This document shows positions 5,202 to 14,241 of a stretch of 64,000 nucleotides of DNA, one piece after another. Under the pieces are notes generated by a model. It did not search any database and was not told where the DNA came from. It was given only the letters and a program-made list of their open reading frames with translations. The translations under genes and the position numbers were made by a program. The DNA lies in the NCBI GenBank assembly GCA_963667035.1, contig OY762964.1, positions 2,944,001 to 3,008,000 on the forward strand. Reading direction: 5' to 3'. Numbering within the stretch: position 1 is the first letter of the stretch; each line of letters opens with the position of its first letter. The stretch comes from Candidatus Cloacimonadales bacterium. GTDB lineage: Bacteria; Cloacimonadota; Cloacimonadia; Cloacimonadales; JAFGVF01.

Positions 5202-8069
5202 CTACCTTACACTTATACCTGTAAAGAATGTCTCCACATAACTAAGGATTTTACTCGTAACTCTCTCCGCTACATTTTTTCGCTCTTTTAACTTTGGTCT
5301 TTGATTCATTGTTGCAATTATATCATCTCTAAGCGGTTCTTTCTCTGTAAAGATGTAATTACTTATCAACTCATTCAATTTATTGTTATCCAATCCCTCT
5401 GTTTTACTTAGTTCGTAAATCGCCTTCTCTTTTTCTTGCTCTACAAATGCTTCGAACTCATCAGGGATTGAGTCTGAGTCAGTTATAAATGGTAAGTTTT
5501 CTTGGATAAACTTCTCTATCAACTCTCGCTTACTTCTGAGAGTTGTTTCACTGGCAAGTAAATCGGTAACGGCATTACGCTGTTTCTCTTGTTCTTCTTT
5601 AGGGGCATCTTTCAGTTTAGCCAATAGTTTCAGTATATATGCAACATTAATCTCGTCTCGATGTATTAGTTCCAATTCAAAGTCAATATCCTCTAATATC
5701 GAAAACTTCTCAACTTCATGTGATGATTTTGCTTTATCATAAAGGTCAAGATATTTGGATTTATAATCCTCAAAGGTTTGATGAGTCATTGAAAGGTCAT
5801 TCCAGTTAAACTCAGTAAAAGTAGTGAGTACATTTTTTAATCGCATTAGCTCTCTAAATGCTTTAATAAACTCTAATTCCTCTTCCTCGTCTTTGAGGTT
5901 ACTGACGCTATTAACAGTCGGTGTTATTTGAAGTATTGTTATAAATGCTTTGTTAAAAATCTCAACATACTCATCATAAGGTTTTATCACAATCTCAGCA
6001 TCATTATCTTTCGTTGAGAACATTTGTATTGCTTCATCTGTTGCAATTTTCAGGTTTCTGAAACAGACTATATTACCTTGTGATTTTGTGTCATTGATAA
6101 TTCTATTTGTTCGTGAATATGCCTGTATCAATCCGTGATATCTTAGATTCTTATCAACATAAAGTGTATTAAGTGTCTTGCAATCAAATCCGGTAAGGAA
6201 CATATTTACAACAAGTAGGACATCAATTTGTTTCTGCTTAACTCGCTTTGCTACATCATTGTAGTAGTTAAAGAAGCTTTGACTGTCCTTAGTAGTGAAG
6301 TTAGTACTATATTGCCTATTGTAATGTCCTATAAACTCTTCCAAACTATCTCGCGAATGTTTAGAGTTATAGATATAGTAGTCCTCGGCAGCCCTTTGTT
6401 CTTTCTCTGCTTGGAACTCATCGTCAATAAAAGCACTACCAATTGCATCTTTATCATCCTCATTTGTCTTATAAGTGAAGATTGTAGCTATTCTAAGCTT
6501 ATGCAGTCCTTCTTCTCTCTTCTGTAGGAACAGCTTATAATACTCAATCAAAGCAGGTATACTTGAAACGGCAAAGATACTTGTAAACTCTTGATTATGA
6601 GTCTTGCGTTTATGGTTCGTAATTATGTAGTCGGTAATCTTATCCAAGCGTATTGGTGATTGCATTACTTCAGCTCTATTGATGTCTTCAACACTTATAT
6701 CTACAATCTTATCCTTCATCTTGAAAGTTCTTATATATTCTACAGAGAATTTAAGAACATTCTCATCTCTTATTGCGTCAGTGATTACATATTGATGAAG
6801 GCATTCAGTAAATAGAGTTGCAGTGGTTCGTTTCCCATATTCATTTGTTCCTGCATTCTTAGTAAAGATAGGGGTTCCCGTAAAGCCAAACATCTGAGCT
6901 TTTCTGAAGAATTCTTTTATCGCTTCATGGGTTCTACCAAACTGTGAACGATGGCACTCGTCAAAGATAAACACAATCCGTTTCTCTTTGAGGGGTTCCA
7001 TTCTTTTCAAGTAGTGTTTCTTGCTAATTGCGTTGTTCAGTTTTTGGATAGTAGTAACAATCAGCTTTTCATCACCCGCCATCTGCTTAACAAGAGTGTT
7101 AGTATTATTAGTACTATCAATACAGCCTTTATTGAAAGCGTTAAACTCTTTGGTTGTCTGGTAATCTAAATCACGTCTATCAACAACAAACACAACCTTA
7201 TGTATTTTGGGTAAGCTTGTCAGTATTTGTGCTGTTTTAAATGAAGTAAGAGTTTTGCCTGAACCGGTTGTATGCCAGATATACCCGTTTTTAGTAGTGC
7301 ATTTAACTCTTTCAATTATCTTCTCAACTGCATAGAACTGATAAGGTCTAAGCACCATTAATACCCTGTCCGATTCATGAATAACGATATACTTGGTTAT
7401 CATCTTAGAGATGTGGCAAGGTTCTAAGAAGATATTAGCAAAGTCAGAGAGCTGTGGTATATGCTTATTATTCTCATCACTCCAGTAGAAAGTTTGTTTA
7501 AATGACCTTGCTTTTATCGGATTATTAGCATAATACTTTGTATTTACACCATTACTAATCACAAATATCTGTAGAAACTGGAACAATCCATGTCCTGCCC
7601 AGAAAGAATGGCGTTGATATCTATTAGTTTGATTGAAAGCTTCTTTCAGTTCAAGCCCACGCCGCTTAAGCTCTATCTGTACAAGTGGTAATCCATTAAT
7701 GAGGATAGTGACATCATACCGATTCTTAAACTTACCTTCCATCGTTACCTGACGAGTAACCTGAAACTCGTTCTGACACCAATGGATTTGATTGATAAGC
7801 TCAATCGTCTTTGACTCACCTTTGTCATTTGTATATGGAACTCTATCACGCAAAATCTTAGCTCTATTAAAGATATTACCCTTGTTAATGTAGTTCAAGA
7901 TTTGTTTAAACTCATTATCGGAGAGCTCAACCTTATTGTGAATCTCTAGTTGAGACTTAAGGTTAGCTATAAGCTCTTTTTCGTCTCGAATCGCAATGCT
8001 CTTATATCCCAACTCTACGAGTTGCTTAATAAGGTTCTCTTCTAATATCTGTTCAGGTTGTGTGTTCAT
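5202..8069 (-). CDS. hsdR: Type I restriction endonuclease subunit R
   Basis: Nuclease motif RYDVTILINGLPLVQIELK, Walker A HTTGSGKT, DECH box, GFTGTP, QAYSRTNR. Likely start MNTQPEQ at 8069; the extra 54 codons in the ORF track are mostly translated REP DNA. Confidence 0.96.
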   Translation of the reverse strand: MNTQPEQILEENLIKQLVELGYKSIAIRDEKELIANLKSQLEIHNKVELSDNEFKQILNYINKGNIFNRAKILRDRVPYTNDKGESKTIELINQIHWCQNEFQVTRQVTMEGKFKNRYDVTILINGLPLVQIELKRRGLELKEAFNQTNRYQRHSFWAGHGLFQFLQIFVISNGVNTKYYANNPIKARSFKQTFYWSDENNKHIPQLSDFANIFLEPCHISKMITKYIVIHESDRVLMVLRPYQFYAVEKIIERVKCTTKNGYIWHTTGSGKTLTSFKTAQILTSLPKIHKVVFVVDRRDLDYQTTKEFNAFNKGCIDSTNNTNTLVKQMAGDEKLIVTTIQKLNNAISKKHYLKRMEPLKEKRIVFIFDECHRSQFGRTHEAIKEFFRKAQMFGFTGTPIFTKNAGTNEYGKRTTATLFTECLHQYVITDAIRDENVLKFSVEYIRTFKMKDKIVDISVEDINRAEVMQSPIRLDKITDYIITNHKRKTHNQEFTSIFAVSSIPALIEYYKLFLQKREEGLHKLRIATIFTYKTNEDDKDAIGSAFIDDEFQAEKEQRAAEDYYIYNSKHSRDSLEEFIGHYNRQYSTNFTTKDSQSFFNYYNDVAKRVKQKQIDVLLVVNMFLTGFDCKTLNTLYVDKNLRYHGLIQAYSRTNRIINDTKSQGNIVCFRNLKIATDEAIQMFSTKDNDAEIVIKPYDEYVEIFNKAFITILQITPTVNSVSNLKDEEEELEFIKAFRELMRLKNVLTTFTEFNWNDLSMTHQTFEDYKSKYLDLYDKAKSSHEVEKFSILEDIDFELELIHRDEINVAYILKLLAKLKDAPKEEQEKQRNAVTDLLASETTLRSKRELIEKFIQENLPFITDSDSIPDEFEAFVEQEKEKAIYELSKTEGLDNNKLNELISNYIFTEKEPLRDDIIATMNQRPKLKERKNVAERVTSKILSYVETFFTGISVR

Positions 8070-8085: not shown

Positions 8086-8203
8086 ACTGGGTACGCCGGC
8101 ATCCTGCCGGCACCACTGGGTTCGCGAACATCCCTGTTCGCTCTCCTCCCGGCAAGATGCCGGGGCACCCGGTTAATGCGAGCTGGAAGCTCGCGTACCC
8201 GGT
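8086..8203 (+). repeat. REP module copy A (118 bp, four hairpins, ACTGGGTACGC...GCGTACCCGGT ends)
   Basis: Hairpins GCCGGCA-tcc-TGCCGGC, GCGAACA-tccc-TGTTCGC, CCCGGCA-aga-TGCCGGG, GCGAGCT-gga-AGCTCGC; 112/118 identical to 8777-8894. Confidence 0.9.
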
Positions 8204-8742
8204 CACAATAACTGCCTTCTATTCTTCTCAATATATTCTATAGTCGCTTGATAATGCTTATCATCTCTAATGTACCTATCATAGTAATCCCTCATCCAGA
8301 AAGCTCCATGTCGTTTTAACACCTTATTAGCTTCATTTGCAGTAAAAGATTTCCACGAATGTACAATCTTTGTCAAACTATAATTAGGGTTAACTCTAAT
8401 CAATACATGCACATGATTAGGCATTACAACCCAATCTATTAACTCATACTTATCTTTATCATGAAACTTTAAAGCATTCTCTACAATCTTAGCTATTTCG
8501 TTACTCTTAAGATAGCAAGCCCCATAACCTTTATCTAAGAACTTAATAATCTTCTTTTGAAGTTTAATATACTCTTCAGAGCCTTTTAGAGTATCGTCAG
8601 TAATAAACAGCTCATCCTTCCAGCTTTGGATTAAATCATTAGGTACAGAGTCATGTAATCGGAAAGTAATAAACTGATAAATCTCGCCACCATCGAAGTG
8701 GGGTGCATATCCTCTGGAGTGCCATCCCTTCAATTCATCCAT
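8203..8742 (-). CDS. REP-associated tyrosine transposase (RAYT, IS200-like Y1 HUH transposase)
   Basis: FITFRLHDS, HUH motif in VVMPNHVHVL, SWKSFTA, FWMRDYYDRYIRD, putative catalytic Tyr in EYIEKN; flanked on both sides by REP modules. Confidence 0.92.
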   Translation of the reverse strand: MDELKGWHSRGYAPHFDGGEIYQFITFRLHDSVPNDLIQSWKDELFITDDTLKGSEEYIKLQKKIIKFLDKGYGACYLKSNEIAKIVENALKFHDKDKYELIDWVVMPNHVHVLIRVNPNYSLTKIVHSWKSFTANEANKVLKRHGAFWMRDYYDRYIRDDKHYQATIEYIEKNRRQLL

Positions 8743-8762: not shown

Positions 8763-8894
8763 ACTGGGTACGCTTCACTGGGTACGTCGGCATCTTGCTG
8801 GCACCACTGGGTTCGCGAACATCCCTGTTCGCTCTCCTCCCGGCAGGATGCCGGGGTACCCGGTTATTGCGAGCTGGAAGCTCGCGTACCCGGT
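8763..8894 (+). repeat. REP module copy B (8777-8894) plus an extra partial ACTGGGTACGCTTC leader
   Basis: Direct repeat of copy A with 6 mismatches; lies between the hsdS stop codon and the RAYT start. Confidence 0.9.
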
Positions 8895-8899
8895 ATAAC

Positions 8900-10108
8900 T
8901 CACACAAACATCCTTTGCAACAACCCTTTCTTAAACTGCTGTGATTCCTCTATCTCATTACTCAACTTCTCTATCTCTTTATCTATTGAGTTTAGGAAGT
9001 CTGCTATTTTCTTTTGCTCGTCCAGTTGGGGAACTGATACTTTTATTCTTTCAATTGTAGTTTTTGATAAGCTTGGTACTCCGGATGCTTCATTATAATG
9101 TCTCCAATTCACTTGTTGAAAGAGAATGAAAACAAATATTGGTAGAATTCTGTTAAAATCATATGTATAAAACAATGTGTCTACCGTCCAAAATTTCCCT
9201 TTTAGATATATAGGCTTATCAATTGTACCTTTTCTTCCTATGCAAACACTCTCTCCATCATAGAGGTAACTATTAACAGAGGTCATATAACCTCCTGTTC
9301 CAAAGACAGGAATATTCCCACAATCCAAGTGTCTGTAATCTCTTCCATTACCAATTTTCAATACCTCCCCCAATCTCTTCTCCTCCCAGTCAGGGAAATC
9401 ATTACCATTATCATCTTTAAAACGCAGAGTAGGGGGGATGAATCTTAATTTCTTGCTCTTCGTAGTCTTCGTGAGGGAGGATTCCTTTTCATCATCAACG
9501 AAGTGTCCATCAAACAGCTTCTGCATTACTCCTTTCTTATAAAGCTCCATCTCCTCTCGCTTCTTCTGGAGTATCTCAATTCTTCTATCAACTGCTGTCA
9601 GGAAGTTCGCTATTTTGTTTTGCTCGGGGGGAGAGGTTGTATTAACCGAAATCTTTTCGAATTGTGTCTTGTTAATAATTGGCACTGCTTGCTCACCAGC
9701 TAATATCTTAATTCTTTTGGCAATTCTTAGTAACTGATAATAGAGGAATTCATTATTGACATTTACTGGATTAATGGAGTTGATTTGCTGATTTGTAGCT
9801 AATTTGTCACCTGCAATAGCAACCTTTCCAATTGTTGATCCAATACACACAAATAATACACTACCTCTTGAAATTTTCCTAGTTTTTTCAAAACCTTGCA
9901 CAGTCAAAGTTTTGGAAGTAGTGTAAACATATTTGTTATCCTTTAAATCAAAGGGAGATACAAACATATACTCTCCATCATACAAGCTCTTATCTGAAGT
10001 AGAGGGGGTGTTACCAGTTATTACTTTTCCAAGAGTAGAAATCCTATTCTCCTTCCACTCCCCCTCAAACTCAGGGAATCTCAATTGTGGTATCAGTTTA
10101 TCTTTCAT
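8900..10108 (-). CDS. hsdS: Type I restriction-modification specificity subunit
   Basis: MKDKLIPQLRFPEF start, two TRDs, conserved PEQNKIANFL...KKGVMQKLF and EQKKIADFL...KKGLLQRMFV; start overlaps the end of hsdM. Confidence 0.95.
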   Translation of the reverse strand: MKDKLIPQLRFPEFEGEWKENRISTLGKVITGNTPSTSDKSLYDGEYMFVSPFDLKDNKYVYTTSKTLTVQGFEKTRKISRGSVLFVCIGSTIGKVAIAGDKLATNQQINSINPVNVNNEFLYYQLLRIAKRIKILAGEQAVPIINKTQFEKISVNTTSPPEQNKIANFLTAVDRRIEILQKKREEMELYKKGVMQKLFDGHFVDDEKESSLTKTTKSKKLRFIPPTLRFKDDNGNDFPDWEEKRLGEVLKIGNGRDYRHLDCGNIPVFGTGGYMTSVNSYLYDGESVCIGRKGTIDKPIYLKGKFWTVDTLFYTYDFNRILPIFVFILFQQVNWRHYNEASGVPSLSKTTIERIKVSVPQLDEQKKIADFLNSIDKEIEKLSNEIEESQQFKKGLLQRMFV

Positions 10109-11777
10109 CACTATTAACCTTGAAAGGGGGAGTAATCCCAAGCTCTTTACAGAATCCGGCAATCTCACTGTTTACATCAACAAGCTCATCTTCGATAGCA
10201 ACAATGCGTTTTGAGACTTCCGCTATATCAATCTCCTCCTCCTCTTCGAAGGTGTCTACATAGCGGGGGATATTGAGGTTATAATCGTTCTCGGCAATCT
10301 CTTCCAAAGTCGCAATATAGGAGTATTTATCCTTTGTTTCTCTTTTTCTATAGGTTTCAACAATCCCATCAACATCACTATCGCGCAGTTCGTTTTGGTT
10401 TCCGCTCTTAATGTAATGCTCGTCACCACTGGCATCGATAAAGACTATATTATCATCAACTTCTCTGCATTTCTTAAAGACAAGAATACAGGTCGGGATA
10501 CTTGTACCGTAGAAAATATTAGCCGGTAGTCCAATCACTGCATCAAGGTAGTTAAGTTCTTTAATCAAATACTTGCGGATAACACCCTCCGCAGCCCCTC
10601 TAAAGAGGACTCCATGCGGAACAACAGTTGCCATAATACCGTTATCGGCTAGCTGATGTATCATGTGCAGGATAAAAGCATAATCGGCTTTTGTCTTTGG
10701 TGCCAGCCGACCGTACTGACTAAAGCGTTCATCAGTATCATTGAGTGGATTATCACTACTTTTCCAATGTGCAGAAAAGGGTGGATTAGCAACCACAGCT
10801 TCAAAGCGTTTGTCTAAATGTTGCGGATTCTCAAGCGTGTCTTCCTGCTGAATATCAAACTTTCTGTAATGCACATCGTGCAAAATCATATTCATTCGTG
10901 CTAAGTTGTAGGTTGTACGATTCAGCTCTTGTCCGTAAAACTCGCTAACATCTTGAACTTCTCGAGCTACACGCAACAGCAATGACCCCGAACCACAAGT
11001 CGGATCATAAACCGATTTCAATTTAGTCTTTCCGGTAGTAACAATCTTAGCTAATATCTTAGAAACCTGCTGAGGAGTATAAAACTCACCGGCAGATTTA
11101 CCTGCCCCGGCGGCGAACTTAGCTATAAGGTATTCGTAAGCATCACCAAGTACATCAGCATCTATATCATCAAGCTTGAAATCTATCTTATCAAGTTTAT
11201 TCAGAATCTGCACAACAATACTGTTACGAGCTCCAACTGTACGTCCAAGCTTAGTTGATTGCAAATCTAGGTCTTCGAAGAGAGCATTGAAATCCTCTTC
11301 GGATTCGGTACCCATAGTGCTTTGCTCAATATGATTCATCACTGCTTGGAGGTCTTCAATAATATAGTTATCCTCATCCTCTTTATCAGAGTTACCCTTT
11401 GCAGCAATAACTGAGAACAGCTCTTCAGGTTTGAGGAAATAACCAAGCTTCTGGAGCGATTCATCCCTAATCGCATCCAAAATCTCCTCATAATCCCCAC
11501 CGGGTACGCTTACTGGGTCCGCGAGCTTCCAGCTCGCACTCCGACTACCGGGTTGGCGGACATCCTTGTCCGCACCTCTTCTAATATCTTTGTAATCAGT
11601 AACCTCTTCACCTTCCAATAGCTCGTTAGCATAAAGATATTGCTTTTCACTCAGGTATTTATAAAAGATGAACCCGAGAATATAGTCTCGGTAGTCATCA
11701 GCATTGACTTTTCCCCTTAAGATATTAGCTATATCCCAGAGCTGTTTTTCCAGTAGTTTCTTTTGGTCTTCAGACAT
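10098..11777 (-). CDS. hsdM: Type I restriction-modification methyltransferase subunit with an in-frame REP-derived insertion
   Basis: LWDIANILRG, GEFYTPQQVS, SAM motif YDPTCGSGSLL, catalytic ANPPF, NLNIPRYVDT. Confidence 0.96.
   Translation of the reverse strand: MSEDQKKLLEKQLWDIANILRGKVNADDYRDYILGFIFYKYLSEKQYLYANELLEGEEVTDYKDIRRGADKDVRQPGSRSASWKLADPVSVPGGDYEEILDAIRDESLQKLGYFLKPEELFSVIAAKGNSDKEDEDNYIIEDLQAVMNHIEQSTMGTESEEDFNALFEDLDLQSTKLGRTVGARNSIVVQILNKLDKIDFKLDDIDADVLGDAYEYLIAKFAAGAGKSAGEFYTPQQVSKILAKIVTTGKTKLKSVYDPTCGSGSLLLRVAREVQDVSEFYGQELNRTTYNLARMNMILHDVHYRKFDIQQEDTLENPQHLDKRFEAVVANPPFSAHWKSSDNPLNDTDERFSQYGRLAPKTKADYAFILHMIHQLADNGIMATVVPHGVLFRGAAEGVIRKYLIKELNYLDAVIGLPANIFYGTSIPTCILVFKKCREVDDNIVFIDASGDEHYIKSGNQNELRDSDVDGIVETYRKRETKDKYSYIATLEEIAENDYNLNIPRYVDTFEEEEEIDIAEVSKRIVAIEDELVDVNSEIAGFCKELGITPPFKVNSDER
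11498..11575 (+). repeat. REP-derived segment (leader plus two hairpins) inside the hsdM coding sequence
   Basis: caccgggtacgctt-actgggtcc-GCGAGCT-tcc-AGCTCGC...accgggttg-GCGGACA-tcct-TGTCCGC; same flank motif and hairpin as the intergenic modules. Confidence 0.88.
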
Positions 11778-11818
11778 CTATGTAAATTCCTTCTGTTGTT
11801 TTTATAATTACCGGGCAC

Positions 11819-11938
11819 ACTGGATACGCGAGCTTCCGGCTCGCACACACAGGTTCCCACCGGCATCTTATCGGGAAGATAGCGAACAGGGATGTTCGCG
11901 TACCCGGTATATGCCAGCAAGATGCTGGCGTACCCAGT
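11819..11938 (-). repeat. REP module copy C, inverted relative to A and B, upstream of hsdM
   Basis: Reverse complement has the same four hairpins in the same order (GCCAGCA/TGCTGGC, GCGAACA/TGTTCGC, a degenerate third, GCGAGC/GCTCGC). Confidence 0.88.
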
Positions 11939-12453: not shown

Positions 12454-13533
12454 TTAATAGAGAGTGGGAGGTAACCCTTTAAAGTATCCAGTTTTGTAAT
12501 TAGCAAGAAAATTCTTTCTAAAAGAGTCGCAGAATATGGGGATAAAGCATAAATCAGCAGTTTTAGCCTTAAGTCCATATTCTGCGACTAACTCAACGGG
12601 GGCCTTGTTACCTCTAGTCCTGATTTTACGAATATGGTTGTAGTAAGTCTGATATATGAAGACTTTACTAATGAAAGATATAATGTCTCTAAACTCTTCA
12701 TAATCATATAATTCTTGTTCTATGGTGTTGTGAAAGCTTTCTACATCACTGTTGAATGTTGGAGATTTTGGAGGTATGCGAACATGAGTTACTCCATGTT
12801 TGTTTAAGATTTCTTCAAAGATTGTGACTCTACTATGAAGAGGTTCAATAAATTCAGTACCGTTATCTGTTTGGAAAGTAATATCATTAGGAGAGCAATG
12901 TAACCCTTTTAGGTATTCAATTACGTAATCCGCAAAAATGGCAGTTGAGAGATCATCTTTATAGTTTGTAAAGCCTAGAAATACCATTCCTGTCTTGTAA
13001 TCTCTGGCAGTAATCTGAAACATAGGTATTGCACCTGACTCATATGCTCTACTCTGTTTAGCAATATCATTTAGGTATTTAACATCGAGCTGAAGTTTCT
13101 GCATAGGCTTATAGTGTGCTCTTACAGCTGACATATCTTTCTTTTTCTTGTATCTTGTTTTTCTTTTCAAAACAAGCTTATGTCTCTTTAATACCTTATG
13201 AACGGTCTTTGCTGAGTAATGCAATTTCAGATTATTTACTATAGTGCGAGCTCCTGGATTGCCACGATCTTTACGTTCTTTGATGATAGCATCTTCAATA
13301 TCTTTTGGCATCTTCAGAGGATGTTTCTGACCAACCCTGGACTTATTCTCGAGACCTGCCTCTCCAAGCTCAAGATACCTATTTCTCCAGAGACGAACAG
13401 TCTTCCTGGTTGTGCCTAACATCCTAGCTGTTTCAGATATGCCATGCTGCATTGAAAGAGTATACATCTGATACCGTAAAAGAGTTCTTGACTTAAATTC
13501 TTTACTGAGTAATCTCATCTCTAAATATGTCAT
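12454..13533 (-). CDS. DDE transposase (HTH plus integrase core), IS481-like
   Basis: N-terminal HTH (GISETARMLGTTRKTVRLWRNRY); DDE triad in LQLDVKYL, FQTDNGTEF, NSDVESFH. Confidence 0.9.
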   Translation of the reverse strand: MTYLEMRLLSKEFKSRTLLRYQMYTLSMQHGISETARMLGTTRKTVRLWRNRYLELGEAGLENKSRVGQKHPLKMPKDIEDAIIKERKDRGNPGARTIVNNLKLHYSAKTVHKVLKRHKLVLKRKTRYKKKKDMSAVRAHYKPMQKLQLDVKYLNDIAKQSRAYESGAIPMFQITARDYKTGMVFLGFTNYKDDLSTAIFADYVIEYLKGLHCSPNDITFQTDNGTEFIEPLHSRVTIFEEILNKHGVTHVRIPPKSPTFNSDVESFHNTIEQELYDYEEFRDIISFISKVFIYQTYYNHIRKIRTRGNKAPVELVAEYGLKAKTADLCFIPIFCDSFRKNFLANYKTGYFKGLPPTLY

Positions 13534-13853
13534 AAGTGTCAGTATATCTAATTCTTAGATTGCTGGCACTCTTTTTTTGTAGGATATATATAATCCAAGT
13601 ATTCAAGGCGAATGTTTCATCCCCTCCATTCGCTAAGCTCATTGCGTGGATGAAACATTTACTCTGCATTTCTCTAGAAATAATCCAATTCATTAAAATA
13701 TTCCTTTAACTGATTAACTGCATTTTTATCAAGTATATAACCCATAAAGACACCGGTCTCTATTGATGATATTATATCATGTAGTTTACGTAGTATTTTT
13801 CTTGGTAAAACTTTGACCTCCCTAGGGTGGATACTTTTAAGGGTGACTCGCCA
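12465..13853 (-). mobile_element. IS481/IS1202-like insertion sequence, 1389 bp, with 26-bp imperfect TIRs and a 15-bp target-site duplication
   Basis: Ends TGGGAGGTAACCCTTTAAAGTATCCA and (rc) TGGCGAGTCACCCTTAAAAGTATCCA match 21/26; AAACTTAATAGAGAG at 12450-12464 and 13854-13868. Confidence 0.88.
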
Positions 13854-13956: not shown

Positions 13957-14157
13957 CCAGCTCGCACACACTGGTTCCCACCGTCATCTTACCGGGAAGA
14001 TAGCGAACAGGGATGTTCGCGTACCCGGTATATGCCAGCAAGATGCTGGCGTACCCAGTGTACCAAAACACTTACTATATACTACCATACATCAAACAAT
14101 TATTCTTTTAGTCAATTAAACATTTTGTGACGATGCACTATTCAGTAAAAATAATAC
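13957..14157 (+). repeat. 201-bp direct repeat, copy 2, including truncated REP module D (13957-14059)
   Basis: Matches 11836-12036; begins in the loop of the GCGAGC hairpin. Confidence 0.92.
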
Positions 14158-14241
14158 TTATTGTGTTCCATCTTACAATGATTGACAATAAAGGTTAAGT
14201 TCATTATTTACCCTTCCTTAATAATATAATTAGGAGAGGCA

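Follow-up and report, generated by a model that had tools for sequence, protein, structure and literature searches.

The locus examined here raises the question of whether a GC-rich island inside a type I methyltransferase gene (hsdM) is a cluster of repetitive extragenic palindromes (REPs) read as protein and, if so, whether the methyltransferase simply carries the extra peptide, is altered by it, or can be switched through it. The window (i.e., the whole stretch of 64,000 nucleotides analysed) contains, on its minus strand, a type I restriction-modification operon with the order hsdM, hsdS, a RAYT-like Y1 transposase gene and hsdR, in which the reading frames of all three hsd genes are whole. 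The host gene has the features expected of a type I hsdM, i.e., HsdM_N and N6_Mtase domains, motifs I and IV (DPTCGSGS of motif I and the catalytic NPPF are both present and unchanged) and adjacent hsdS and hsdR genes, and its product scored 442 bits against TIGR00497 (cut-off 243). A tblastn search of the genome found no other full hsdM, and a scan for promoters gave nothing above chance. At third codon positions hsdM has a GC of 0.39, above the value of 0.36 that marks the 95th percentile among long ORFs, and most of the best homologues with names are from Bacteroidota; the gene was thus likely acquired horizontally. The window also carries an IS481-like element (rve integrase; 12464-13853), with at least 4 further near-full copies in the genome that are 99% identical; beyond it, 204 bp at 13957-14160 partly duplicate the region upstream of hsdM.

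Table 1. Features of the hsd operon, the hsdM insert and the associated repeats (positions in the window unless a genome location is given)
Feature	Position	Strand	Remarks
hsdR	5202..8066	-	954 aa, intact
REP cluster downstream of RAYT-like gene	8086..8203		94% identical to 8774-8894
RAYT-like Y1 tyrosine transposase	8203..8742	-	179 aa; HVH at 111-113, Tyr171; between hsdS and hsdR
REP cluster upstream of RAYT-like gene	8763..8894		Stub and units, both orientations
hsdS	8900..10108	-	402 aa, two Methylase_S stretches; start overlaps 3' end of hsdM
hsdM	10098..11777	-	559 aa, intact; Pfam HsdM_N and N6_Mtase
Net in-frame insertion in hsdM	11496..11582	-	87 bp, 29 aa (R66-G94)
Leader-only REP stub (ACCGGGTACGC)	11499..11509	+	Arrangement as at 8763
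REP unit 1	11512..11537	+	Leader with 1 mismatch, GCGAGC/GCTCGC hairpin
REP unit 2	11547..11573	+	Leader with 2 mismatches, GCGGACA/TGTCCGC hairpin; orientation as unit 1
REP cluster upstream of hsdM	11810..11938		Left end resembles left end of insert; putative partner in deletion of second copy
Second hsdM piece (relic)	G000:C1:2880093-2880870 (L045)		hsdM upstream DNA and REP cluster joined to codons 96-138

The original prediction had described REP hairpins in frame inside hsdM at 11498-11575. Both the REP-type origin and the open frame, with the inserted peptide at HsdM residues 66-95, were confirmed; the coordinates delimit the repeat core, and the net insert is larger (87 bp). Its edges can be placed to within two codons rather than to the base, i.e., at 11496-11582 or up to two codons further 3' (11490-11576, G68-Y96), the latter being the gap placement given by MAFFT. 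The insert is indeed GC-richer (64%) than the rest of the gene (41%), but hsdM, which had been called AT-rich, is so only in this relative sense, as the genome has 35.6% GC. It is also true that the insert contains no stop codon, but this is weak evidence, as 432 of 444 reading frames across the REP units are open. As single-stranded DNA, the insert segment folds better than 200 of 200 shuffled sequences (z = -3.7); its folding as mRNA is unremarkable (z = -1.4, with 22 of 200 shuffles equally good).

Comparison with the best 120 homologues listed (76-82% identity) yielded a clean 29-aa gap, where the original prediction expected about 28 aa, and the insertion was absent from all 120. The distance between conserved anchors on either side is 75 residues in the window HsdM, 46 in 119 of these 120 homologues and 47 in the remaining one. 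Among 80 genome loci, 77 had both anchors, all with a distance of 46, and in 3 the anchor motif was missing. None of these 80 loci, nor L015 or L016, gave a tblastn match to the window RAYT, and the REP leader was found in none of the 77 anchored hsdM loci; in the 29 loci L015-L043 it was likewise absent from the hsdM stretches, with 3 loose matches elsewhere in the loci. At the anchored loci, where no such RAYT match was found, the peptide is absent. In keeping the frame and being absent from orthologues, the insert agrees with intragenic REPs and RPE-type elements. A search for other carriers using residues 58-104 returned 6 candidates, none scoring, and HsdM shares its 90% cluster with a single further protein, a fragment of 203 aa whose sequence begins after the insert.

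As repeats can mislead assemblers, we considered whether the insert could be an assembly chimera. Single contigs bridge it without differences in three assemblies (X1, 8800-11901; X2, 8816-11901; X3, 10987-11715), which represent three runs of one sample that may be the assembly's own source, and the spacers within the insert are unique in the genome. A fourth run (X4) placed no contig here, and a look for RNA runs covering the region gave none. We thus regard a chimera as refuted for practical purposes.

To place the insert among the repeats of the genome, we scanned for hairpins preceded by the leader ACYGGGTAC, allowing it at most 2 mismatches, and obtained 80 matches; 6 were dropped as chance, leaving 74 family units. 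The units are short (26-27 nt) with GC-rich stems of 6-7 bp, and they are dispersed in many copies mostly outside genes, both of which are typical of REPs. No strict target motif was visible upstream of the units. The unit foot is ACYGGG(T/A)AC, and the tetranucleotides GTAG/GTGG or CGTC are absent; we therefore call the repeats REP-like and do not file them under the GTAG or CGTC REP superfamilies. The GCGGACA hairpin of the second insert unit, reported as new, is so within the window but occurs in 16 other units elsewhere in the genome.

Only 8 of the 74 units lie in long genes, i.e., 2 in hsdM, 5 in a Mu-like portal/head-F gene and 1 in a Mu-like transposase gene; where units otherwise overlap ORFs, these are short ORFs or stretches that precede the likely start codon. 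As coding sequence makes up at least 86% of the genome, the units are strongly depleted from genes, as would be expected if most intragenic insertions are purged. The hsdM gene is the one of these three that was compared with homologues. The portal/head-F gene encodes a portal/head-F/PBECR2 fusion of 909 aa (G000:C1:1649889-1652618, L044), with five in-frame REP units between the portal and F domains. The transposase gene (G000:C1:1658601-1660751, L044) has an in-frame REP unit and a second, degenerate one after the N-terminal HTH; its homologues, at 24-40% identity, are too distant to judge this insert. Leader decay was tried as a mark of intragenic units and is not general, as 3 of the 5 portal units have perfect leaders.

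The densest spot for these repeats in the genome is the neighbourhood of the RAYT-like gene, with 12 of the 74 units within 6.5 kb starting at position 8086. This gene lies 2.8 kb from the hsdM insert and is bracketed by two 121-bp clusters that are 94% alike, with elements (8203 on the minus strand, 8763/8777 on the plus strand) pointing away from it, i.e., the inverted flanking arrangement of RAYT genes. Its product has a Y1_Tnp core with the HUH motif and a catalytic tyrosine (49.8 bits against PF01797), and scored 68 bits against NCBIfam NF047646, below the cut-off of 80 but well above its 42 bits against an IS200 model. The Y-x-x-x-N-P signature that PMC6006769 gives for the RAYT class is lacking; the sequence reads YIEKN followed by R, and the paralogue also has no proline. 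The genome's other RAYT-like copies are 69% and 37% identical, in agreement with a low-copy, divergent gene. The 69% identical copy (G000:C1:1509010-1509564, L046) also has hairpins of this family on its flanks, with leaders that differ.

Relatives of the RAYT-like protein (48-63% identity) occur in all 8 genomes from two sister genera, together with 12-142 leader matches. In the same genus, 3 genomes have only distant relatives (39% identity or less) and 2-13 leader matches; other families of the order have 0-11. Because relatives and leader matches occur together in the sister genera, and because clusters flank the gene, these comparisons indicate that the repeats behave as REPs of the RAYT-like gene, with its action on the hairpins putative. 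The leader at 8763, to which the original prediction had likened that of the insert, has the same stub arrangement: the genome contains 4 perfect leaders that lack a hairpin, and of these only the two in question are followed by TT(C) and a new leader. This arrangement, common to the insert and the cluster beside the transposase gene, suggests a local source for the insert.

Whether HsdM tolerates the insert was assessed from its predicted structure and conservation. An AlphaFold2 model built on a 104-row alignment (overall pLDDT 70.7) matches solved HsdM chains (e.g., 3lkd, EcoR124I) and has a short helix, then coil at residues 68-94 (pLDDT about 28), then a helix at 96-110 that is predicted with confidence (pLDDT about 80). 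The insertion site corresponds to about residues 65-68 of EcoR124I M; a single-sequence AlphaFold model (pLDDT 37.6) was of no use. As low pLDDT is expected wherever no alignment rows cover a segment, the model places the insert, in support of the loop position given in the original prediction, and is no proof of disorder. That prediction had also placed the insert in a variable HsdM loop, which does not hold for the close subfamily, where loop length is fixed; it varies widely only among distant HsdM subfamilies. Tolerance can therefore not be taken for granted, all the more as the Asp that is conserved ahead of the helix is displaced. Deviations at conserved columns number 12 of 385 in HsdM, within the range of its homologues (0-25, median 5), and frames and motifs are intact. 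Overall, these data suggest that the insert is probably tolerated, as had been proposed.

An alternative is that the insert harms or retunes HsdM, being either recent or mildly damaging in a decaying operon, or shifting the preference for hemimethylated DNA or the contact with HsdR. HsdM's N-terminal domains clamp DNA and, in EcoKI, contain the m* mutations (PMC2647291), loop length is invariant in 119 of the 120 close homologues listed, and the perfect hairpin stems would fit a young insert. However, the three hsd frames are intact around the only full hsdM detected in the genome by tblastn, the helices flanking the insert model well, segment length varies widely among distant subfamilies, and the codons beside the insert appear to be under purifying selection (see below). 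We thus consider harm or retuning unlikely.

Evidence on the age of the insert comes from a second, truncated hsdM piece located 75 kb from the window hsdM. This relic, whose neighbours are an Rrf2-like gene and a cysteine desulfurase gene, is also the source of the lone nearby joint in the contigs (11495 to 11816). Its upstream DNA with the REP cluster is 93% identical over 644 bp to the hsdM upstream region, and its join coincides with the 3' edge of the insert, where it aligns across the join at a REP leader. Over the 43 codons shared with the window hsdM, we found 11 silent and 2 replacement differences (dS about 0.6, dN 0.02, dN/dS 0.03; P about 1e-6 under neutrality). Third-position GC is 0.30 in the relic as compared to 0.44 in the window allele. 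Both copies have Tyr at position 96, where 120 of the 120 homologues listed have Asp or Glu. Gene order shared with the genome G001 is so interrupted that it gives no explanation for this second copy.

The break at the insert edge, together with the excess of silent over replacement changes, suggests that the insert is old and tolerated. On this sequence comparison, both alleles probably carried the insert and diverged under purifying selection, and recombination between the end of the insert and the similar end of the upstream cluster later removed the 5' part of one of them. In another reading of the relic junction, the deletion took place at a short stretch, ATTAT, that hsdM has in common with the flank of the upstream cluster; the match used is the first of 5 ATTAT sites in hsdM. 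If the relic arose in this way, its allele need not have carried the insert, and dN/dS would not date the insert. The hairpin stems of the insert are identical to those of other copies, which is odd for an age corresponding to a dS of 0.6.

The existence of a truncated hsdM form in the genome also bears on the possibility that the insert is a repair scar, i.e., that a 5'-truncated hsdM regained its 5' end from another allele through REP ends and part of a cluster was left inside. The left half of the insert and the left end of the upstream cluster do share the order ATAAT, stub, GCGAGC unit. However, such a repair would also have to join the opposite side at precisely the right codon and again in frame, and the N- and C-terminal parts of HsdM match the same subfamily; we consider a scar very unlikely.

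The original prediction proposed that the insert could be the site of a RAYT-dependent switch, in which the enzyme would excise and restore the insert and thereby turn the methylase on or off in part of the population. A RAYT-like gene does lie in the same operon, and there are precedents for the steps: sequencing reads of Pseudomonas showed the excision of REP doublets (PMC3116915), and E. coli TnpA-REP cleaves at a CT to the left or right of the hairpin (PMC3479197). The excised unit in the former report, however, is an inverted doublet, found in 3 reads among 56 million and in one loss that had become fixed, and no excision of singlets was observed in the data that report describes, whereas the hsdM units are direct and their leaders have decayed (1 and 2 mismatches). 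No contig skips only the insert (although contigs drop rare variants), and a search of metagenome contigs with the exact junction pattern of an empty allele gave 0 matches. Moreover, both states would be in frame, leaving perhaps nothing to switch. These points leave the switch highly improbable.

We therefore favour, with good but not full confidence, the explanation that a REP-like cluster is translated as a probable neutral passenger loop in HsdM. By analogy to E. coli TnpA-REP, the HUH enzyme may cut and rejoin single-stranded DNA at the hairpins and would seed copies densely around its own gene; inside genes, only frame-keeping copies that fall between helices would survive. The diverged hsdM allele apparently had the same REP end, and would have lost its first 95 codons in a one-way deletion between this end and the upstream REP cluster. 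The insert would be old because that allele appears to have had the REP end before the deletion, and it would act as a passenger and a weak point for deletion rather than as a reversible switch. A bolder version, which we consider distinctly unlikely, is that a long-lived REP planted by the RAYT inside hsdM pairs with the upstream cluster and so constitutes a cut-out of the first 95 codons that retires the restriction system in one step, with the second copy as its fossil and the loop perhaps tuning the DNA clamp in the meantime.

REPs read as protein, including in an N-6 DNA methylase, are already known, and the hsdM insert is a new example. The original prediction held that it is mainly Rickettsia for which coding palindromes are documented; Di Nocera et al. 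2013 (PMC3733652) report instead that many species have REPs contained entirely within ORFs. More than half of these REPs form dimers or groups that encode 20-30 residues, and an N-6 DNA methylase of Opitutus terrae (Oter_3011), whose residues 444-496 correspond to a REP dimer, appears in supplement 3 of that paper. In RAYT genes (subclass 2.4), REP inserts that preserve the frame are described in PMC6006769, and repeats fused into genes are reviewed in PMC3184786; the literature used for comparison also includes PMC2817692 and PMC5581495. The units described here resemble the intragenic GTAG/CGTC-tagged REPs of Di Nocera et al. in being short GC-rich hairpins that are mostly intergenic, with a minority in frame, in forming groups that code 20-30 residues and in having an N-6 DNA methylase among their hosts. 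They differ in their 5' tag (ACYGGG(T/A)AC as compared to GTAG/GTGG or CGTC) and in phylum, and, unlike the dimer in Oter_3011, the hsdM insert lies in the N-terminal domain.

With the REPtrons of RAYT/TnpA-REP genes (Nunvar 2010, PMC2817692; Quentin 2018, PMC6006769; Messing 2012, PMC3479197) the locus shares a low-copy Y1 HUH gene and dispersed inverted repeats flanking it; unlike these, it has no GTAG foot, and the protein ends soon after the Tyr, lacks the signature Pro and falls below the NCBIfam cut-off. As with the REPINs of Pseudomonas (Bertels and Rainey 2011, PMC3116915), palindrome clusters are tied to a RAYT, and the stubs recall the short end left after excision; REPINs are, however, inverted doublets, whereas the hsdM units and stub all lie on the plus strand as a direct array, and are not REPINs. 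Rickettsia palindromic elements (described through PMC3733652 and PMC3184786) are likewise palindromes translated inside unrelated proteins, but RPE-1 measures 105-146 bp and occupies many housekeeping genes, as compared to units of 26-27 bp here, in one restriction-modification and two prophage genes. With the present case, the REPs read as protein come to include a further lineage and a repeat family without a tag, and it is one of few intragenic cases with a hint of age and selection, given by the diverged second allele broken at the same base. By itself, the finding changes no view and opens no hard question. A literature search for Cloacimon* with repetitive extragenic palindromes returned nothing on the topic by title or abstract start.

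The locus is also a further instance of RAYT-like genes in type I restriction operons, for which our literature searches on RAYT and restriction-modification turned up no description. Matches resembling hsd genes were found near members of the RAYT subfamily in 2 of 63 metagenome loci (2 of the 42 that are at least 4 kb long) and in 1 of 26 family loci (with 1.5-kb flanks); the association of this subfamily with restriction-modification operons is thus a minority habit. At L169:9551-10787 (G005), an unrelated type I operon has a RAYT-like gene and long tandem repeat units between its hsdS and hsdR. At L216:4324-8163, a RAYT-like domain and its flanking repeats lie in frame inside a 1279-aa HsdR, with similar peptides (REQDAPAT) found again where the next hsdS starts.
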